A DNA stretch of 64,000 bases, from positions 1 to 64,000 of the IMG/VR virus record IMGVR_UViG_3300013121_000027, one strand, 5' to 3'. Positions 1 to 57,632 of this stretch are shown in pieces. The position numbers and the translations under genes were made by a program. Position 1 is the stretch's first letter, and each line of letters starts with the position of its first letter. The stretch comes from a virus. Taxonomy: Duplodnaviria; Caudoviricetes. Under the pieces are notes generated by a model. It searched no databases. It had not been told where the DNA came from and saw only the letters and a list, made by a program, of their open reading frames with translations.

Positions 1-5
1 AAGTC

Positions 6-506
6 ATGAAGAAGATCATGGGTACTGGGTCACGCTCAATGGTGACTCATCCAGATGCCAAGATCATCTACGCCAATCTGGAAGCCAAGATTCTCCAGAT
101 AGCGGAAAAGGAAGAAGTCATGCTGATCACAGGCATGGCTGAGGGTTGGGATGAAGCGATTGCTAAGGTTGGAATGCGCAACAACATTCCATATGTCGCA
201 TACGTTCCCAATCAGGGGTACGGTCAGTATTACTGGGGCAAGAACAGTCTGCTCAAGGTCAACCGTATGCCGTTGTATCAGGATCTGTTGGCACATGCCA
301 TGCAGGTCATCTTCGTGTGTCAGACCATTTATGTGAATGGAGTTCATGCGAATTTCATCCGTAATCAGGCGATGGTTGATGCATGCGACATGGCTATGGT
401 CTACGACTCCAACTCATCAGGTACTCGGGATGCGGTTGCGAGATTGAAGATCGCCAACAAGCCATACCTCATTTATCCATTCAACCTGCAGGAGGCTTTA
501 TTCTAA
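6..506 (+). CDS. SLOG/YspA-like (DUF1273-type) nucleotide-binding protein
   Basis: GTGSR, ITGMAEGWD, RNQAMVD and SSGT motifs are typical of the SLOG superfamily. Confidence 0.75.
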   Translation: MKKIMGTGSRSMVTHPDAKIIYANLEAKILQIAEKEEVMLITGMAEGWDEAIAKVGMRNNIPYVAYVPNQGYGQYYWGKNSLLKVNRMPLYQDLLAHAMQVIFVCQTIYVNGVHANFIRNQAMVDACDMAMVYDSNSSGTRDAVARLKIANKPYLIYPFNLQEALF

Positions 507-774
507 ACAGCCGCTTCCAGGTTCTACCGTACTCTGAAAAAGATGGGATCGTTACCGTTATCTGTACTACGGAATGATTCACTGATAGATATGTGTACAG
601 GGTATCCAGAGAAGACCGACTCTGAGGTGGGATGCGTATACCAAATAACGCATATTGGCATTTGTGGGTATAGGAGTTTTGCGGATTTTCCGACACATTC
701 TAAACTCACAGATGCCTCAGGAGAGGAAAAAGAGGGGATTCATTCCGGATTCCCACCTGACATAAGGAGATGTC

Positions 775-1149
775 ATGAACGTCAAGGAACTCACCCAGAA
801 GGTCACCGATCCCGTGGTGCTCGCCACCGGCACCGTGGTCGAGGGTATCCAGACCCGCAAGCTCGCCCGTCGTGCCTTCAAGGCTGCCAAGGAGCAGATG
901 AAGGCGGAAATGATCGCGGCAGGAATGCCCATCGTGATCGCTCAGGACGAGCAGAAGCGCATCGAAGAGGAAGCTGCCAAGGCTGCCCGACTCGCGGAGA
1001 AGGAGAGCAGGGATGCTGCCAAGCAGGCTGCTGCCATGGTCGAGACCCAGACCACGCTCACCGAAGCCATCGCGGAGCTCAACGCCAACGTGGTGAAGCT
1101 CTTCCAGGAGAAGGCTGTCAACAACACCACCGGTCAGCCCACCAGCTGA
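775..1149 (+). CDS. Hypothetical coiled-coil protein with GC3-rich (host-like) codon usage
   Basis: AAGGAG RBS, strong C/G third positions, downstream hairpin. Confidence 0.8.
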   Translation: MNVKELTQKVTDPVVLATGTVVEGIQTRKLARRAFKAAKEQMKAEMIAAGMPIVIAQDEQKRIEEEAAKAARLAEKESRDAAKQAAAMVETQTTLTEAIAELNANVVKLFQEKAVNNTTGQPTS

Positions 1150-1164
1150 TCTCACTCATGATAT

Positions 1165-1210
1165 TTGGGGTAGGACTTGTGGGGGATTCCACAGGTTTCT
1201 ACCCCATTTA
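1165..1210 (+). terminator. Stem-loop / probable intrinsic terminator
   Basis: tggggtaggacttgtgg...ccacaggtttctacccca followed by tttt. Confidence 0.55.
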
Positions 1211-1320
1211 TCACTCTCCGTGACATTATCCCTATAAACGGGATTCTACCCCGGAGAAAAATGACACCACCACCCTGATGTGGGTACCAAATAACCACCC
1301 TGAGTGATCATGGACCCATC

Positions 1321-1440
1321 TGCCCGAGCGAAGCGAGGGCAATAACCCGAGCGGAAGCGAGGGTTAGTAGACTATATAGGCGAGCGCAGCGAGCCATTGT
1401 TTCACGTGAAACATAGCGAGCGAAGCGAGCGACTATATAG
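1321..1440. repeat. Four CGAG-C(G)GAA/GCA-GCGAG hairpin repeats (ssDNA hairpin, primosome-assembly-like)
   Basis: cccgagcgaagcgaggg, cccgagcggaagcgaggg, ggcgagcgcagcgagcc, gcgagcgaagcgagc; gactatatagg occurs twice. Confidence 0.75.
1398..1413. promoter_or_regulatory. parS: parS site (perfect consensus palindrome)
   Basis: TGTTTCACGTGAAACA is an exact match to the canonical bacterial parS. Confidence 0.8.
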
Positions 1441-1527
1441 GCTAAAAATCCCCGTCTGCGTAGCAGCTTCTTGCAAAAAGAGGGGATTTCCCGCTCATTA
1501 CAAACGTCTCAAAGGAGGGACTCAACC

Positions 1528-1962
1528 ATGCTGTCCATGGGACTCATCTTGGCTGTCATGTCAGTGGCAGTGGAGATGTTCTTCGTCATTCAGTACGATG
1601 GGATCAGGCGATTCATGCTTCGGCATGAGAAATTCGGTCTGATCTTCTCGTTCCTGTTGTCGTTCTTCATCGGTGAGGTCTTTGGCGCTCATGGCGTCAT
1701 TGCTCTGTTCGCAGGCATGACCTCTACCGTGATCACGGCTGTGATCTATCAATCGGACGCTCTCGTCCTGGTAGATCGCTATAGGGAGCGTAAAGGTGAG
1801 ATTTCCACAAAACTCCATTCTTCCTGGACCAAGTTCCAGAATGTGGTGAAGTTCTGGTGGAAGATCATCTGCTTCCCTTATACATGCTGGATTGCCATCA
1901 AGGCTTTCTTCCAGCGTGTATCCAACAGCTACGACAGAGCGAAGAGCTTCATCCACCGCTGA
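1528..1962 (+). CDS. Hypothetical membrane protein
   Basis: GGAGG RBS before ATG 1528; about three hydrophobic segments. Confidence 0.75.
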   Translation: MLSMGLILAVMSVAVEMFFVIQYDGIRRFMLRHEKFGLIFSFLLSFFIGEVFGAHGVIALFAGMTSTVITAVIYQSDALVLVDRYRERKGEISTKLHSSWTKFQNVVKFWWKIICFPYTCWIAIKAFFQRVSNSYDRAKSFIHR

Positions 1963-2093
1963 TCTACTGCCAAGCACAACACCTCGCTACTGCCTTGGGG
2001 AGCAATCCCCAGGGCTGGTAGCCTATTCCCTTTCATAGGGAAAAATTAATGGTGTTGTAATGAATCTCATGTTGCAAAAGTCTCAAGGGGGCG

Positions 2094-2131
2094 GCAGGTT
2101 AAAAATCCTGTACAGCAGGTTAAAAATCCTG
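2094..2131 (+). repeat. 17-bp direct repeat GCAGGTTAAAAATCCTG x2 (21-bp period)
   Basis: Copies at 2094-2110 and 2115-2131; partial third copy near 2159. Confidence 0.8.
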
Positions 2132-2414
2132 AACCATCCTTGATTCGTTGAGATGGGGGCAGGTTAACTTATGGCATTAATTGCCTTCGTTAGCCAACAT
2201 ACTTATTCCCTTATACATGGATATTTATGTACACTGTGCTATATGCATATGTGTATGTATTATCATTCATGTGTGTGGAAGCATTTATGGGGATATGTAT
2301 GTGGTGCGGAAATTTTCCGTTTCTAAACCACCCGGTCTCTCTAACAGAGGTTTCGGTAATGCGGGTCTAATATTCGTGTTCTAATTCACCTGTAAAAAAG
2401 AGGGGATCGTGGAT

Positions 2415-2810
2415 CTCACTTCTTGTACAGGTGCTACTGCGTGCACTGTGCGGGAAGTTTCTCTTCCTCCTTGATACCGTGCACTGGTTCTGGTTTGCTG
2501 CCTTGTTCTACTTGGCGCAACCTCACGTAGTAGCATCTGTAGAGGATGTGAGTACCGTCCTCTGTCCCCGTACTCGGGGTCACTAACTGTCCACTTTGTC
2601 CGGTGGATACCCGCGAAGCGTTGCCGAGCGGATATGGCGATAAGCGTGAAGCTCACCACGCGAAACGCGAGCATACCCTGAGCAAGTATGTGGACACCCT
2701 TCGCTGCTCCTATGGAGCCATTCAATGCACTGTCCCGGTGCAGCTGACCTACTGATAAGATGGCTCGCTTAGCCATTCGAAACAGTAAGACACCTTAAGC
2801 AAGTGTTGGG
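2415..2810 (+). ncRNA. Candidate structured ncRNA
   Basis: No plausible ORF; 18-bp stem 2426-2443/2524-2541 with G.U pairs, several further hairpins; follows an AAAAAGAGGGG motif. Confidence 0.55.
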
Positions 2811-2886
2811 AACTCATTCTCACGATGGAAAAGAGGGGCAATCATTCTTGAGTGCCTCTCAAACTATATCGGCTAAGGAGACTGGT

Positions 2887-3066
2887 ATGTCATGCGTTTA
2901 CGCCCTCTGTACCGATCACCAACACTCCTGTGATGCTGATTCGTACTACAACCCGCAACCTTGCTACACTTGTGAACAAGCAAGTGAATGTGAGGAGTGC
3001 ATTCGTCTCTCTAAGGAGGCTGAAGATGCAACAGCAGATGATGCGGAATTTCACATCCCGCAGTAA
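2887..3066 (+). CDS. Small Cys-rich hypothetical protein
   Basis: AAGGAG RBS; CxxC-type clusters. Confidence 0.55.
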   Translation: MSCVYALCTDHQHSCDADSYYNPQPCYTCEQASECEECIRLSKEAEDATADDAEFHIPQ

Positions 3067-3320
3067 CTCTCATCCCGTACTCGCTACAGGTAATCTCATT
3101 GAGGGTACCCTTGGCGTCTTTGCCGTAGGTATGGGGATTTATTCCCTATTCCTGTATGGCTTCGGTGCCTCCCTCATCCTGTCACTCTGCTATACAGCAG
3201 CTGTGACCGTCATCGCTTTGATGAGCGCCTACAACCTCATGTAGTAGGTGCTCTTCGGAGTGGAAAAAGAGGGGTAGATAACTCATCTGCCCCACGGTTC
3301 ATCAGACATAGGAGGTCATC

Positions 3321-3902
3321 ATGAACCTGTCCCCGTCCACCCTGGTCGCTGCGATCAACCTGGAAGAGATCCCGGAGTCGTCCGTCAAGGACATCCGTCT
3401 TCCCGGTGGCAGCGCCGATGCGCGCAACGTGATCACCGGCAAGCAGTGCCGGACCATCCTGCGCTTCTTGCAGGACACCTTCGTGCCGCGTGATCCCGCG
3501 GTCACCCTGGAGTCCGGTCTCACCGTGCTCCGCCAGCGTGCTGGCATCACGGGCGGGTCCTTCGACTTCGGTCTGGTGGAGTACATCTTCCACCAGCTCC
3601 GCGAGCTGACGAAGGACGAGGCGCTCACCGAGCAGCAGGAGAAGCTCGCTGCGACGTGCACCCAGGCGCTCTCGGGCGTCAAGGATCACTTCGACGCCAG
3701 CATCCAGGCGCGCATCAACGCCCAGGACCGCATGATCCGTAACAAGATCATGCTCCAGTTCCTCGGCGTGCGCACCCGTGGCGATCTCACCGTCGCCATG
3801 AACATGTTCACGAACGTGTTCGGTGCTCCGCAGCCCAAGGGTGTCCTCACCCTGGACGAGCTGACCGGGGAGACCAGCGGTCTCGTCATCGGTCAGTTCT
3901 GA
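3321..3902 (+). CDS. Hypothetical protein, GC3-rich
   Basis: AGGAGG RBS, host-like codon bias, downstream hairpin 3918-3975. Confidence 0.8.
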   Translation: MNLSPSTLVAAINLEEIPESSVKDIRLPGGSADARNVITGKQCRTILRFLQDTFVPRDPAVTLESGLTVLRQRAGITGGSFDFGLVEYIFHQLRELTKDEALTEQQEKLAATCTQALSGVKDHFDASIQARINAQDRMIRNKIMLQFLGVRTRGDLTVAMNMFTNVFGAPQPKGVLTLDELTGETSGLVIGQF

Positions 3903-4116
3903 TCCACTCGATGTGGTTCTTCGCTCCTGCCTCACTCTTGCCTTCATGACTTGAGTGAGGTGGGGGCGAAAACCCTGCTTTACCAGGTGAATTAGATTGG
4001 CGTCTTAAAGTGTCATAATATTGTAATATGTAATTCGCACTTACGATTTATACACTTTTTTATATATACTACTATATAACTACATTTTTGTAGTTTAGAT
4101 TTAAGGTAGGTATTTT

Positions 4117-12165: not shown

Positions 12166-12366
12166 TGGAAGCTCCTTAAGTAAGGTGAACTTCTATTATA
12201 GTAATTCTATATATTGTCTGTTGCATAGGCGTCAGATTGGGGTGGTTTTGGGAGGACAGCTAAACATATCCAAACCTAAACCTATGCAACAGAGAGTATA
12301 TAGATATTTCTTGCTTGAAAAAGAGAGGGAAAGCAAGCATATTAAAGCACGGATTGGAGATAAATC

Positions 12367-20012: not shown

Positions 20013-21386
20013 ATGTCGCACGCAAAAATTTCATGTGTTATTGATTTGTCCTTTGGTGATTCCGGCAAGGGCGCACACGTAGATTATCTCTGTCGTAATG
20101 ACAATGCTCGTCTCGTTGTTCGCTTTAATGGTGGAAACCAAGCAGGTCACAATGTTGTGACTCCAGAAGGCTTGCATCATTGCTTCCATCTCTTTGGCAG
20201 TGGAAGCTTTATTCCTGGAGTAAATACTTATCTTGCTCCTACTGTTCTTGTAAATATTCAGGCGCTTCTAAAAGAAGTTCATGATCTTAACAAATACGTT
20301 ATTGCTCCTCTCCTTCCGAGAATGTTTATTCATGAAGATTGCCCTATCATTACTCCATATCATATTTATATGAATAGGTATATGGAAATTCTTCGTGAAG
20401 ATAGTCCTCATGGTTCTTGTGGGCAGGGGATTGGTGCTTGTGCAGCAGATCTTGAAACACTTCATCCTGCTCTTATTCTTAGGATAAGAGATATTAGGAA
20501 TCCTGAAATCTTGAAGAAGAAGCTTCAAGCTCTTTATGACAGATGTGTCTTTGATTTTCCTCTTCATCTTCTAACTGATGAGCAAGCAAAAAGAATTGGG
20601 ATTTATACCGATTATCTTGAAGAAAACTGGATAAATCAGCTCACAAACTATTATGTAAATTCTTCTTCTCTTCTTCAAATCGTAGATAATACCTTCTTTG
20701 CTAATGCTCTTGAACAATATGAACATATTGTATTTGAAGGAGCACAAGGGGTACTTCTTGATGAGTGGTATGGTTTCCATCCTTATACTACTTGGAGTAG
20801 TACTAATCTTCGCAATGTCCATGCTATATTTGATCAGTATAATTATGCTGGTGAATACCATAATTATGGTCTTCTCCGAGCATATACAACTCGTCATGGT
20901 GCTGGTCCATTTCCAACAGAAGATTCAACATTGCTTGAATTTCTTAACGATGAATACAATCCAACGAATGAATGGCAACAAGACTTTAGGGTAGGACATT
21001 TTGATCCTTCTCTCGTAATCTATGCTATTCGTATGGCAAAAGATCCTGAATCTAAATGGCGCGGAATTGATAGCCTTGTTATTAGTAATGTGGATAGAAT
21101 GTTTGGTCTTCATCCAAAAATTGCATCACATTATCATATAACTTTTGGACAAAAAGATATTAATCATCAAGCAGAAAAAGCTTCTCTCTTAATGCATATG
21201 AATCTTTCTAACTATTCAGGAGTTACTCATGATGTACTGAGCTTCGAAAATATGATGTCTTATATTAAAGATATCATTGATGAAGTTGGTAGATTTGTTT
21301 CTCCCATTGGAGCAGTTTCTATTGTTGGTGTTGGTCCAACTTCAAAAGATAGAATCGTTATTAATACTCCTATTTACAAATCCTGA
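20013..21386 (+). CDS. purA: Adenylosuccinate synthetase-like protein (PurA family)
   Basis: GDSGKG, RFNGGNQAGHNV, GSCGQGIG, FEGAQG, TRHGAGPFP. Confidence 0.85.
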   Translation: MSHAKISCVIDLSFGDSGKGAHVDYLCRNDNARLVVRFNGGNQAGHNVVTPEGLHHCFHLFGSGSFIPGVNTYLAPTVLVNIQALLKEVHDLNKYVIAPLLPRMFIHEDCPIITPYHIYMNRYMEILREDSPHGSCGQGIGACAADLETLHPALILRIRDIRNPEILKKKLQALYDRCVFDFPLHLLTDEQAKRIGIYTDYLEENWINQLTNYYVNSSSLLQIVDNTFFANALEQYEHIVFEGAQGVLLDEWYGFHPYTTWSSTNLRNVHAIFDQYNYAGEYHNYGLLRAYTTRHGAGPFPTEDSTLLEFLNDEYNPTNEWQQDFRVGHFDPSLVIYAIRMAKDPESKWRGIDSLVISNVDRMFGLHPKIASHYHITFGQKDINHQAEKASLLMHMNLSNYSGVTHDVLSFENMMSYIKDIIDEVGRFVSPIGAVSIVGVGPTSKDRIVINTPIYKS

Positions 21387-24841: not shown

Positions 24842-26747
24842 ATGATAAAAACAACTTATATCTCTTGTGGTGAAGAAGATAACCAAGCCCTTTATATTGA
24901 TGGTAAATATGTAACTGGGCATTATTATTTAATGCTTGATGGGGCAATTGATATCGTTAAACATCTTGCCCCAGAGGCTGAAATAAAAACATATGAAATG
25001 CCTGAAGAAACTATGGAAGATTTAAATGGCTTTCCTGTTGAACTTCCAAACAATTTCGTTGAGCTTTGGAACTTAGTCGATACTCATCTATTTGAAGACT
25101 AAGGAATTATTACTATGAGTATATATTCTACAAGAGTAATATTAGGCGATGATGATTTTTTTGTAGAAACTGGTCCTGGTATTGTGCTTCAGTATAGCGC
25201 CTCACATATTTATCCAGATACTGAAACTCATGAACAAACTTCCTTAGAAACTGCGCATATTCCTCATTTTTGTATGCCAGGTGGTTATGATCTTGATGAT
25301 GAAGACCATCTGTTATATGCACCATGGATGAGATTATCCCTTGATGGAGTAAATGTCATTTTGGATAAAGAAGCAGTTAAATTATTAAAAGATGATTTGG
25401 AAGAATGGTTAAGTCATTTCCATGGGTAAATATCTTTATACTCCACCTGAAAAAGTTCAGCCAATGATTCATTTTTGCTATCAACCCTCTTTAACTAAAT
25501 CACAAATTGGTACTATCTGGGAATGCAGCTGTGGTCAAAGATGGCGACTTAATCGTGATTTTTTGCTTGTATGTAGCTGGCGAAGAATTTCTAAATGGCG
25601 TTCTAATAGAATATTAAAAAAACATAATGGTTGAATCATGTACTAATTGTAAATTTAGCTGGATTGAAGAAACTGGTTTTGGTTGTTCTCAAATGTATTG
25701 TCGTAGAAATCCACCATCTCCTTTTACTTCTTTTGCTTATCCATATCCCAAAACATATGATGGACAATGGTGTGGCGAATATAAATCTAATGAGCCACCT
25801 CTCTGAGAGATATTTTTTAAAATGAAAATTTATAGCTTTCAACCTGTTATATTATCTGAACCTTTTCAACCCAATAGTTCTCGTGTAGAAATTTCACTTG
25901 GTGATGTAGTAGTATTTACACATTTCATTTCTGAACAAGGACAAAGCGCTCCTACTTGGGAAGAAGAAATGATTGATGAAGCTTTTCGTATTTTTGCTGA
26001 GAAGCTTAAAAAGGCTATAGAAAATGTTTAGAAAATGTAAGCATAAATGGACTATTGTAAATCGTAAATTTACTCCACCAATTCCTAATATTGTAAAACT
26101 TTCAGGTCCAGATAGTGATCAAAAATTTTTTACTCTTTATGGTTTTACTACTATAGAGCAAAAATGTACGATTTGTGGTCAAATCAAGTTTGTTCACTGT
26201 CAAGGCAATCAAACATGAATGACCTTACAAAACTACTTGGACAAAGATGGTGGAGCGCTATTCCTCCTGGTTCTGTTTTAATTACTCCTTATCTTAGTAT
26301 TGAAAATGACAATGTTGCAATTTTTCAATTTAATGATATTATTTTTACAGTGACTTTATGGGAAGATAATATTATTAAAATTGAACAAGGTAATCTTGTC
26401 TATCAGTTAAAGAAAAATGATGATGAGTTATAAATGTCCTAAATCAAAAACTGAAAAATATTTTTGGCATATTTATGAGTTTCTGTTCTTATCCCTTGCC
26501 TTTATATTTTCTGTTCCATATGCTATATACTTGAAGATTAGATATCGTAAAAGTAAAAGGAGAATTGATGAAGGCTAAAGTGATTATTGAAATAGAAGTT
26601 TCTGCTGAGTTTCATAATCAAGCTACTCAAGATATGGTTGATGAATTAACTACTACCTTGTCTACTATTTTATCTGCGCAAAAAAATAATCCTGGATTTA
26701 AATTCTCAAAAGCACGAGTTAGATCTATTCTTAAAAAGAAGAGATAA
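24842..26747 (+). CDS. Run of small hypothetical ORFs (24842-25102, 25115-25429, 25422-25634, 25822-26031, 26024-26218, ~26215-26433, 26565-26747)
   Basis: Tightly packed or overlapping + strand ORFs. Confidence 0.55.
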
Positions 26748-26752
26748 TACAC

Positions 26753-26785
26753 AGGGGTATCGTCTAACGGTTAAGGCACTGAGCT
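26753..26785 (+). pseudogene. 5' half of a split tRNA-Gln
   Basis: AGGGGTATCGTCTAACGGTTAAGGCACTGAGCT; ends at U33. Confidence 0.8.
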
Positions 26786-27434
26786 ATATTAAATTATAAA
26801 GTTTTGCTCTTTTTCTAACTGCATTATCTGATACTCCAAATATTTTTCCTGCTTGTACAAAATTTGTTGTTTTAAGAATTTTTTCTAACTCTTCTTTTGT
26901 AGGATTAAATTTTCTTAAATGAGATCTTCCAATTTTATTTCTTTCTTTTTCTTCTTTATCTTTTAACTTCTTTTCTAAATTTCTTCCTGCATAGCTTTGT
27001 GTTTGTGTATGACAATTAGGACATAGAATTTGTAGATTTTCTATTCTATGATCATTATATATTCCATTAATATGATCTAATTGTAAAGTTAATGGTTTTC
27101 CATTCCATTCTGATCCAATTTTACATTCATTACATTTTTCTTCTAATATATTATTTTGATAAAGTTTTTTCTTTATCAAATCTCTGTTTGTATATAAAGA
27201 ATTTTCTTTAAAAATATCTTCCCATGGAATCATTATATAACCTCTGGCATGGTTTATATTACTTTTTCCTATTTTGGGTTTTAGTCCAAATTCTTTACAT
27301 GCGTTATGAAATGCTTTAAAATTTCCTCCAGCAGATCTTAATCCTAAAAACTTTAAAGCATCTGAGATACTTTCTGTTTTCTCTATAGCTTCTTTGAGTT
27401 CTTCTCTATTTTGTAGTATACTTCTTGTTCTCAT
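26784..27434 (-). CDS. HNH homing endonuclease inserted in tRNA-Gln
   Basis: CNEC...LQLDHINGIYNDHRIENLQILCPNCH; C-terminal HTH-like GVSDNAVRKR. Confidence 0.9.
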   Translation of the reverse strand: MRTRSILQNREELKEAIEKTESISDALKFLGLRSAGGNFKAFHNACKEFGLKPKIGKSNINHARGYIMIPWEDIFKENSLYTNRDLIKKKLYQNNILEEKCNECKIGSEWNGKPLTLQLDHINGIYNDHRIENLQILCPNCHTQTQSYAGRNLEKKLKDKEEKERNKIGRSHLRKFNPTKEELEKILKTTNFVQAGKIFGVSDNAVRKRAKLYNLI

Positions 27435-27445
27435 TATTATTCCTT

Positions 27446-27527
27446 TGGGGAGTAGCCGACATTGGTATAGGCATCAGCCTTTGGAGCTGACGCGAAAGCA
27501 TTGAGGGTTCGATTCCTTCCTCCCCAA
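27446..27527 (+). tRNA. tRNA-Gln(TTG) with a long variable arm
   Basis: tggggag/ctcccca acceptor, tcagc-ctTTGga-gctga, variable region cgcgaaagcatt. Confidence 0.88.
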
Positions 27528-27567
27528 CTGCTACTTCATGTAGTAATTCTATTTATTGGCAAACTAA

Positions 27568-27596
27568 CATTTAGGGTTCGAATCCTTATACCCCTA
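27568..27596 (+). pseudogene. 3' half of the split tRNA-Gln
   Basis: CATT-TAGGG-TTCGAAT-CCTTA-TACCCCT-A; TACCCCT pairs 7/7 with AGGGGTA at 26753. Confidence 0.8.
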
Positions 27597-27598
27597 CT

Positions 27599-28066
27599 AT
27601 GAAATATATATCTTGTCCATTTGGAACTCAATTTCATCCTATCAAATGTGAATTAAAAGATGACACTTTACTTTTAGCTAATTTTGACCTACTTCAAAAG
27701 GCTTGGGGCGCTTTAGGATATTCTCCTTATCCTCATTATTGGTATCAATTTCGTAATGGCTTTGGACTATCTGTTTTTAAGTATAAAAAAGACTTATGGG
27801 AATATGCAGTTTTGGATCATACTGAAAGTATTGCCGGATTTTATCTTCCAGACGTAGCTCACATTTTTAATGGCGCATTAACACCAGGCAATCAACATTT
27901 AGTTCATGCAGTGGTAGAAAAGGGCGTTCATACAATACTTAATGCTCTTCAATCTCATCCTAAAATCTTTGAATTTGATCCTCTTTATGTGGTTTATTCT
28001 TTTTCAGATGATCCAATTCCCCTAAAGCCTGTACAAGCTGATGAGGATAAAATTGATTTGTTTTAA
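27599..28066 (+). CDS. Hypothetical protein
   Basis: FRNGFGLSV pattern. Confidence 0.65.
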   Translation: MKYISCPFGTQFHPIKCELKDDTLLLANFDLLQKAWGALGYSPYPHYWYQFRNGFGLSVFKYKKDLWEYAVLDHTESIAGFYLPDVAHIFNGALTPGNQHLVHAVVEKGVHTILNALQSHPKIFEFDPLYVVYSFSDDPIPLKPVQADEDKIDLF

Positions 28067-38023: not shown

Positions 38024-38064
38024 CGGGACGTAGCTCAGCTTGGTAGCGCACCTGCTTTTGGTGC
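38024..38064 (+). pseudogene. 5' part of a truncated tRNA-Pro
   Basis: CGGGACGTAGCTCAGCTTGGTAGCGCACCTGC followed by a mutated loop; no T arm. Confidence 0.75.
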
Positions 38065-38081
38065 AAAAAATCCAAACTTGA

Positions 38082-38276
38082 TCTTCTGCCAACGACTACT
38101 ATGGGATTAAGTGTTGTAATGAAAACTGCCTTTTAACCGTTAAACAAATTAATATTCCAAAAGAACTTATAGATGTCCATCATATTGATGGCAATAGAAG
38201 TAACAATAATTTAGATAATTTAATACCTCTTTGCGTATGGTGTCATGCTATCACAACAAGAAATGTTATACTATAA
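38082..38276 (+). pseudogene. HNH endonuclease remnant (no start codon)
   Basis: Frame reads KCCNENC...IDVHHIDGNRSNNNLDNLIPLCVWCHA. Confidence 0.8.
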
Positions 38277-38283
38277 AATTTAC

Positions 38284-38354
38284 CGGGCATTGGTATAGTG
38301 GTAAAACACTTGCTTTGGGAGCAAGAGTCACAGATTCGATTTCTGTATGCCCGA
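38284..38354 (+). tRNA. tRNA-Pro(TGG)
   Basis: cgggcat/atgcccg acceptor, cttgc-ttTGGga-gcaag. Confidence 0.88.
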
Positions 38355-38357
38355 CTT

Positions 38358-57316: not shown

Positions 57317-57392
57317 CTGGCTGTATCCCCTCAATCTTATAAATTGTTGAAAGGGTAGATGGTACACGTGGGTTCAATCCCCACCAGCCAGA
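57317..57392 (+). tRNA. Non-canonical D-arm-less tRNA-like RNA, anticodon TAT (Ile)
   Basis: ctggctg/cagccag-A acceptor, caat-ctTATaa-attg, gtggg-ttcaatc-cccac T arm. Confidence 0.6.
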
Positions 57393-57632
57393 CTCTTTTG
57401 CTTGAATATAGGTTCAATTTATGGCTATCCTAGATTTTGTTATTTATGAAGATGATTTTTTAAATCGAAGATTTTGTCGTGAAAAACGTAAATATACATC
57501 TGCTCATTGTGAACGTGACCCTTCTCATGTTGAACGTAATGAACAACATATAGGTCGAGACATACTTGGTAGATATCATTTTTGGGACTTGCGCATAGAA
57601 CAATTAACTCTCTTTTAGCTACAAGGAACTAA

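Follow-up and report, generated by a model that had tools for sequence, protein, structure and literature searches.

The anticodon loops of bacterial tRNAs can host group I introns with homing endonuclease ORFs. T4 SegF and MobE are examples of endonucleases that home without such an intron, and in the Aeromonas phage Aeh1 MobE splits nrdA; in such cases the two protein parts cooperate, or the product is restored by an intron or intein nearby. Intron-less or collaborative homing, with its 'fractured genes', has been described for endonucleases that invade a conserved gene without an intron of their own, the cost to the host gene being handled otherwise (PMC2677866; reviewed in PMC2988022). The free-standing GIY-YIG homing endonuclease SegB of T4/T6 resides in a tRNA cluster and cuts the tRNA genes of phages without SegB (PMC2330249, PMC13096335), while the T5 tRNA region encodes F-TflIV (hegA) and other F-Tfl enzymes, which are HNH site-specific endonucleases (Akulenko et al. 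2004, PubMed 15456135, as cited in PMC2330249, PMC10644984 and PMC5714182). Free-standing endonucleases that cut tRNA genes, such as SegB, and HNH endonucleases of the T5 tRNA region are already known. Searches of the full-text literature yielded no description of a dead target gene surrounding a nuclease together with a spare copy of the same isotype, which is the arrangement analysed here.

The locus lies in a phage genome of 231,459 bp that has direct terminal repeats and is rated complete; the window, by which we mean the whole stretch of DNA analysed, is its first 64 kb. Near-identical DNA is present in wastewater, activated-sludge and aquaculture metagenomes from several studies. ARAGORN predicts 22 tRNA genes in the whole genome, spread over 16-97 kb. 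The first part of the window (1-4000) has a G+C content of 51-53%, against 30-44% in the remaining window. Positions 20013-21386 encode an adenylosuccinate synthetase homologue (Pfam E 1.6e-60), for which an ordinary purine gene and a PurZ-type gene (2-aminoadenine genomes) are both possible.

A preliminary description of this DNA, made from the letters alone, had proposed a canonical tRNA-Gln gene split into halves approximately 780 nt apart, with seven of seven acceptor pairs, by an insert holding a minus-strand HNH gene and a complete, divergent tRNA-Gln(UUG) with an unusual variable arm. Sequence reading and a genome-wide scan confirm the split, and the two inner genes are likewise borne out (table 1). 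In the 5' half, the acceptor strand is followed by a D arm (4-bp stem, GG loop) and by the 5' side of the anticodon stem, which leads into C32 and U33; the 3' half runs from 4 nt of variable loop through a T arm with a perfect 5-bp stem and a canonical loop to the 3' acceptor strand and the discriminator, and the next gene downstream starts at 27599. All seven acceptor pairs between the halves are Watson-Crick. Neither side of the insert has positions 34-43 of the old gene, which would be the anticodon and the 3' side of its stem, and the old gene is therefore dead. Since its anticodon has been deleted, the isotype was assigned by likeness only: tRNA-Gln accounts for eight of the 12 best matches among 506 phage tRNAs.

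Table 1. Features of the tRNA-Gln locus and of the three sister cassettes. Positions are counted from the first base of the window, which is also the first base of the genome.
Feature	Position	Strand	Basis
Old canonical tRNA-Gln-like gene, 5' half (positions 1-33, ends U33)	26753..26785	+	Sequence reading and tRNA likeness
HNH endonuclease gene, 216 aa + TAG stop	26784..27434	-	Pfam HNH, family residues, homology to hegA
Cassette (insert), 782 bp, in place of tRNA positions 34-43	26786..27567		Sequence reading; contigs bridge both junctions
Complete cassette tRNA-Gln(UUG)	27446..27527	+	ARAGORN; Rfam tRNA 50.4 bits
Conserved box TTACTACA on HNH strand, upstream of HNH; candidate -10-type element	27539..27546	-	Recurrence across cassettes
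Old tRNA-Gln-like gene, 3' half (positions 44-73)	27568..27596	+	T arm and 7/7 complement to 26753-26759
Old tRNA-Pro 5' part (positions 1-38, anticodon UGG kept)	38024..38062	+	Seven best matches all tRNA-Pro
Pro cassette HNH remnant, 64 aa open, HNH motif intact	38082..38276	+	Pfam HNH_3 E 4.2e-6
Pro cassette complete divergent tRNA-Pro(UGG)	38284..38355	+	ARAGORN
Ala cassette: old 5' part (anticodon UGC, G3:U70) and 3' part; new tRNA-Ala(UGC)	89436-90097	HNH antisense	New tRNA: Rfam 51.5 bits
Thr cassette: old 5' half only; new tRNA-Thr	95800-96578	HNH same strand as tRNA	

Isolated halves of this kind were not detected by Rfam and were found with custom scripts. The scan covered the whole genome and required, 150-3000 nt upstream of an orphan T arm, both a D-arm-like start and an acceptor strand able to pair with it at 7/7 positions. 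It returned two matches, the tRNA-Gln locus and a tRNA-Ala locus described below. When the same scan was run on 30 Markov-1 random genomes of the same dinucleotide make-up, 28 gave no match and two gave one each, which places the pattern beyond chance.

The 782-bp insert contains the HNH gene and the tRNA gene only, and this anatomy supports the view of the two as a unit inside a dead tRNA gene. The HNH ORF (26787-27434, minus strand) matches Pfam PF01844 with an E-value of 7.5e-5, which passes the cut-off. Its TAG stop codon (26784-26786) is the reverse complement of tRNA C32 and U33 plus the first inserted base, so the overlap with tRNA positions 32-33 that had been noted earlier is real. 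The protein keeps all 20 family-invariant residues, defined as alignment columns from 25 homologues. An AlphaFold model (mean pLDDT 85.7, with the HNH core at high confidence) has an N-terminal helical domain, the HNH core and a C-terminal helix-turn-helix. A structure search with the whole model matched only HNH cores (McrA, Cap5 and ZRANB3), with weak E-values, and a profile search by sequence for a solved relative found none.

The protein is a full-length homologue of T5 hegA/F-TflIV (in tblastn against 2.3 Gb, 98% of the query aligns at 26% identity with E 4e-10; pairwise blastp 28% identity, E 1e-19). The two have the same three-part build, are free-standing and lie next to tRNA genes; in the tRNA region of T5, 23 nt separate hegA from a tRNA gene. 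Unlike the gene in the window, T5 hegA lies between intact tRNA genes, with no broken target or same-isotype spare annotated. Recoding of TAG was also considered, as the genome has a tRNA with a CUA anticodon (amber suppressor type; full genome 82082-82155) and both intact nested HNH genes end in TAG. It was rejected on genome-wide ORF statistics: the TAG stop is used by 56 of 360 long ORFs, and no region gains when TAG is read as sense, so the standard genetic code was assumed.

The cassette tRNA-Gln gene runs opposite to the HNH gene and begins 11 nt away from the start codon of the latter. Its variable region of 12 nt has only a 2-bp stem with a GAAA cap; relative to an ordinary tRNA-Gln, there are eight additional nucleotides (the GAAA-capped mini-hairpin) between position 43 and the variable loop. 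This site (43/44) is the exact point at which the old 3' half resumes. Class II tRNAs, those with a long variable arm, have more than approximately 10 nt in this region, folded into a stem-loop; relatives have variable regions of 15-17 nt with 4-5-bp stems, and the extra-arm class makes up 12 of the 67 tRNA-Gln genes in HNH loci. Among 10 genes of the class from HNH loci, covariation was scored on the cloverleaf and is seen in 16 of its 19 pairs, and extra-arm tRNA-Gln genes are therefore under selection as RNAs. The cassette tRNAs of the window and of locus L002, in another phage, are 82% identical, with five compensatory pair changes. Because the fold is kept through such changes, the cassette tRNA is probably functional. 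Its minimum-free-energy fold is not a cloverleaf; support for the cloverleaf comes from the covariance model and from covariation.

The same design recurs within the genome. Four cassettes were found, Gln and Pro in the window and Ala and Thr outside it, each combining the remnant of a canonical tRNA with an HNH gene and with a divergent tRNA that matches the remnant in isotype. In the Pro cassette (38024-38355), no 3' half is left, and the HNH frame has no ATG, GTG or TTG start codon, so this copy is probably a pseudogene. In the Ala cassette, the new tRNA-Ala(UGC) is complete and divergent, and the last 12 codons of the HNH gene and its TAG stop lie inside the old 5' part. The old tRNA-Ala is 97% identical over 32 nt to an intact tRNA-Ala of another phage, and by this comparison the break removes approximately one base (position 40). 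The longest HNH ORF of the Thr cassette opens upstream of the new tRNA gene and runs through it on the same strand.

Old and new anticodons are readable and equal in the Ala and Pro cassettes, while the isotype match is by likeness in Gln and Thr. The breakpoints fall at 33/34 in Gln and, by sequence reading, at approximately 32 in Thr and 38 in Pro; that of Ala, placed against the intact tRNA-Ala, is at 39/41. All four are thus within the anticodon arm, the isotype-specific part of the tRNA gene. The four HNH proteins have only a catalytic core of approximately 45 aa in common, which suggests that they have separate specificities. D arms are of bacterial type in the remnants, and AT-rich and unusual in the new tRNAs; the extra arm is absent from the Ala, Pro and Thr cassette tRNAs.

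The genome also contains other tRNA-like sequences. At 57317-57394 in the window and at 87038-87115 and 93223-93296 of the genome lie elements that have no ordinary D arm, although the acceptor stem pairs 7/7 and the T arm is canonical; ARAGORN missed all of them. Outside the window, at 82350-84824 (L089), a Ro60 orthologue (TROVE E 5e-40, Ro60 vWA E 3e-55) follows a stretch of approximately 600 nt made up of repeated units with tRNA-like T arms, one of which is a match to Rfam YrlA at 46.4 bits (E 3.5e-8), short of the gathering score.

Homologues of the HNH protein are numerous (1538 found), and the design recurs in unrelated phage contigs as well as within the genome. Eight places were inspected for the seven closest homologues (41-55% aligned identity), and in all eight a tRNA-Gln(UUG) gene lies within approximately 115 nt of the HNH gene, in four arrangements. 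L002 has an antisense HNH gene, a tRNA-Gln with the same 8-nt hairpin and the 5' half of an old tRNA-Gln broken after position 33, whose bases 32-33 again contribute to the stop codon. This is the junction seen in the window, in a different setting: the two old 5' halves diverge at many positions, the genes on the flanks are not related, and identity is 54-55% for the HNH proteins and 39% for the one further gene in common. L004 retains a shorter 5' fragment of an old tRNA-Gln. At L003 and L090-L093, the HNH gene stands beside an intact tRNA-Gln with no halves, and nesting is therefore not obligatory.

Looking at the HNH family more widely, the best 80 IMG/VR loci have a tRNA gene within 400 nt in 74 cases and within 120 nt in 64. 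The commonest nearest tRNAs in these loci are Gln (16), Leu (14), Trp (9) and Cys (8). Orphan tRNA pieces abut the HNH gene in several IMG/VR loci (L037, L049, L055 and L061). At L037 (2247-2979), an antisense HNH gene separates the two parts of a tRNA and ARAGORN calls no inner tRNA, and in another phage (L018, 3179-3443) a tRNA interrupted by approximately 190 nt adjoins a gene of the HNH family. Homologues are also found among the tRNA genes of cultured Enterococcus, Rhodococcus and Agrobacterium phages.

The preliminary description had pointed to a repeated 12-mer, seen again near 12200, as a possible promoter of the HNH gene. The repeat itself is not above chance: there are two copies in the window, both on the + strand, where 0.8 are expected, and 17 of 100 shuffles reach two. 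What does stand is an 8-nt core, TTACTA(T/C)A, found in the HNH sense upstream of the gene in six cassettes, namely the Gln, Ala and Thr cassettes of this genome and those of L002, L003 and L090. Its orientation tracks the HNH gene and not the tRNA. There are 26 copies in 462 kb, counting both strands, and the chance of one in a given 60-nt stretch is approximately 0.003. The core looks like a -10 element, extended by TG in two loci, and fits a candidate -10-type promoter; in the antisense cassettes, the HNH message would then begin with antisense tRNA. A sigma-70 and terminator scan of the locus gave seven promoter-like sites against 7.0 expected, and no terminator.

The preliminary description had proposed a search for relatives with an uninterrupted tRNA-Gln gene at this locus, and none was present in the collections searched. 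With the downstream protein as query, IMG/VR yielded no relative and a search of 5.8 billion proteins matched only the protein itself (an ORFan). Exact-pattern scans with the old 5' and 3' halves gave no match in IMG/VR or JGI metagenomes. The window and L002 have different old halves at the junction, so that the shared co-conversion tract expected of classical homing is not visible.

Two explanations of the insert were considered and rejected. It is not an assembly artefact, as contigs of at least 99% identity from four independent studies cross both junctions (for example, at 26143-27088 on the left and 27258-27633 on the right). No contig skipping the insert was found in four runs; these contigs are short and of low depth, so their lack of an insert-free form is weak evidence. 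Nor is the insert an integrase-borne island in a tRNA gene, since it has no recombinase and its left end is a bare 5' half rather than a restored gene.

We consider it likely that the insert is a cassette that homes without an intron, cutting tRNA-Gln genes and supplying a replacement of its own. Because the design recurs in this genome and in other phages, we view it as a 'cut and replace' mobile element aimed at tRNA genes. In outline, a mobile cassette made up of an HNH gene of the hegA/F-TflIV family and a linked tRNA-Gln(UUG) would have entered the anticodon loop of a resident tRNA-Gln gene after position 33, with loss of positions 34-43, and would thereby have killed that gene; the first insertion may have been an illegitimate repair event. 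On co-infection with a phage that has an intact tRNA-Gln gene, the HNH endonuclease would cut that gene in or next to the anticodon arm. Repair of the break from the cassette-bearing genome, via the tRNA halves and any shared flanks, would copy the cassette in. The cassette tRNA gene itself would escape cutting, because both of its stems are changed and the 8-nt hairpin lies between positions 43 and 44.

The cassette tRNA would then supply tRNA-Gln in place of the destroyed gene, although this 'compensation' may not be a selected trait, because phage tRNAs are often dispensable. After fixation the element would decay, with Pro (a start-less HNH gene and no 3' half) and Thr (no 3' half) as later stages. 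The well-kept halves of the Gln cassette suggest that its entry into the lineage was fairly recent, and the decayed Pro and Thr cassettes, together with the halves-free loci L003, L090 and L091, fit the usual cycle of invasion, decay and loss.

The anatomy of the locus bears on whether the insert could leave a working tRNA-Gln, either as an intron or because the halves are made separately and joined as a functional split tRNA. The old halves still have perfect stems, and the anticodon-loop target and the homing endonuclease passenger are just what is seen with group I introns in bacterial tRNAs. However, with positions 34-43 missing from both sides of the insert, the joined halves would have no anticodon arm. 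No Rfam intron family matches at E-values up to 10, and ARAGORN does not call the split tRNA-Gln when introns of up to 1500 nt are allowed. The HNH ORF lies outside any intron RNA match and antisense to the tRNA halves, as in free-standing types, and a whole tRNA gene is nested within the insert. The term 'intron-less' in the preliminary description is thus appropriate, a group I intron in the anticodon loop was rejected, and any route to a working old tRNA-Gln is highly improbable.

Nuclease-driven rearrangement has more in its favour, since SegB cuts many tRNA genes via a common T-arm motif and drives rearrangement of tRNA loci (PMC2330249, PMC13096335). HNH breaks in tRNA clusters and sloppy recombination could likewise have left a broken copy around an HNH-tRNA pair as a by-product, with no site-specific homing and no immunity. 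The presence of the HNH family beside tRNAs of many isotypes, the four arrangements relative to tRNA-Gln and the failure to find an empty site in IMG/VR, JGI metagenome and protein searches would all be compatible with this. We nevertheless regard it as unlikely: the old and new tRNA genes are too unlike to be recombination partners or duplicates, the isotype matches in four of four cassettes even though nothing but the core is common to their HNH proteins, an identical junction occurs in the different old genes of the window and L002, and the breakpoints cluster in the isotype-specific anticodon arm and not in the common T arm. It is also conceivable, at rather long odds, that the unusual tRNA-Gln is anti-defence cargo, kept because it escapes a host tRNA-cutting nuclease, with the HNH gene as its vehicle and the break in the old gene incidental. 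Phage tRNAs do counter tRNA-cutting defences and SegB spreads such tRNA genes (PMC13096335; see also PMC11464382), and the extra-arm tRNA-Gln recurs in HNH loci as a class under structural constraint. There is, however, no sign here of a host nuclease aimed at tRNA-Gln, and the cassette tRNAs for Ala, Pro and Thr have no extra arm; a role of this kind would in any case add to homing rather than exclude it.

A homing cassette that destroys and replaces its target would differ from each of the described systems in a specific way. It shares with SegB a frequent linkage to tRNA genes and, on our proposal, would share the preferential inheritance of its own tRNA region and the spread of useful tRNA genes. 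SegB, on the other hand, belongs to another nuclease family, recognizes a T-arm motif common to all tRNAs rather than one isotype, and acts by gene conversion of a homologous region without being nested in a dead target with a spare copy. Where the known fractured genes have their product restored, the RNA gene in the window is destroyed and a second, divergent copy delivered.

For the HNH-tRNA cassettes as a class, we would put at about even the chance that they are general 'cut and replace' gene drives for RNA genes, in which each endonuclease reads the anticodon arm of one isotype in DNA, destroys a rival's gene, and installs itself together with a rewired tRNA gene of that isotype that it cannot cut; for Gln, immunity would come from the 43/44 hairpin. 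On the usual view, a homing endonuclease can settle safely in a conserved gene only inside a self-splicing intron or intein, or else stays intergenic, and the cassette design would be a third route, in which the target is destroyed and a substitute brought along. With four cassettes at different stages of decay, this one genome could serve for a study of the life cycle of such elements. If the inferred specificity holds, phages would possess a natural set of endonucleases, each reading a different tRNA gene. The same specificity would provide a mechanism for the turnover and odd shapes of phage tRNA genes, such as the extra-arm tRNA-Gln, would account for the tRNA fragments scattered in phage tRNA clusters, and would make the cassettes a simple model, open to test, for gene drives equipped with a rescue copy of their own.
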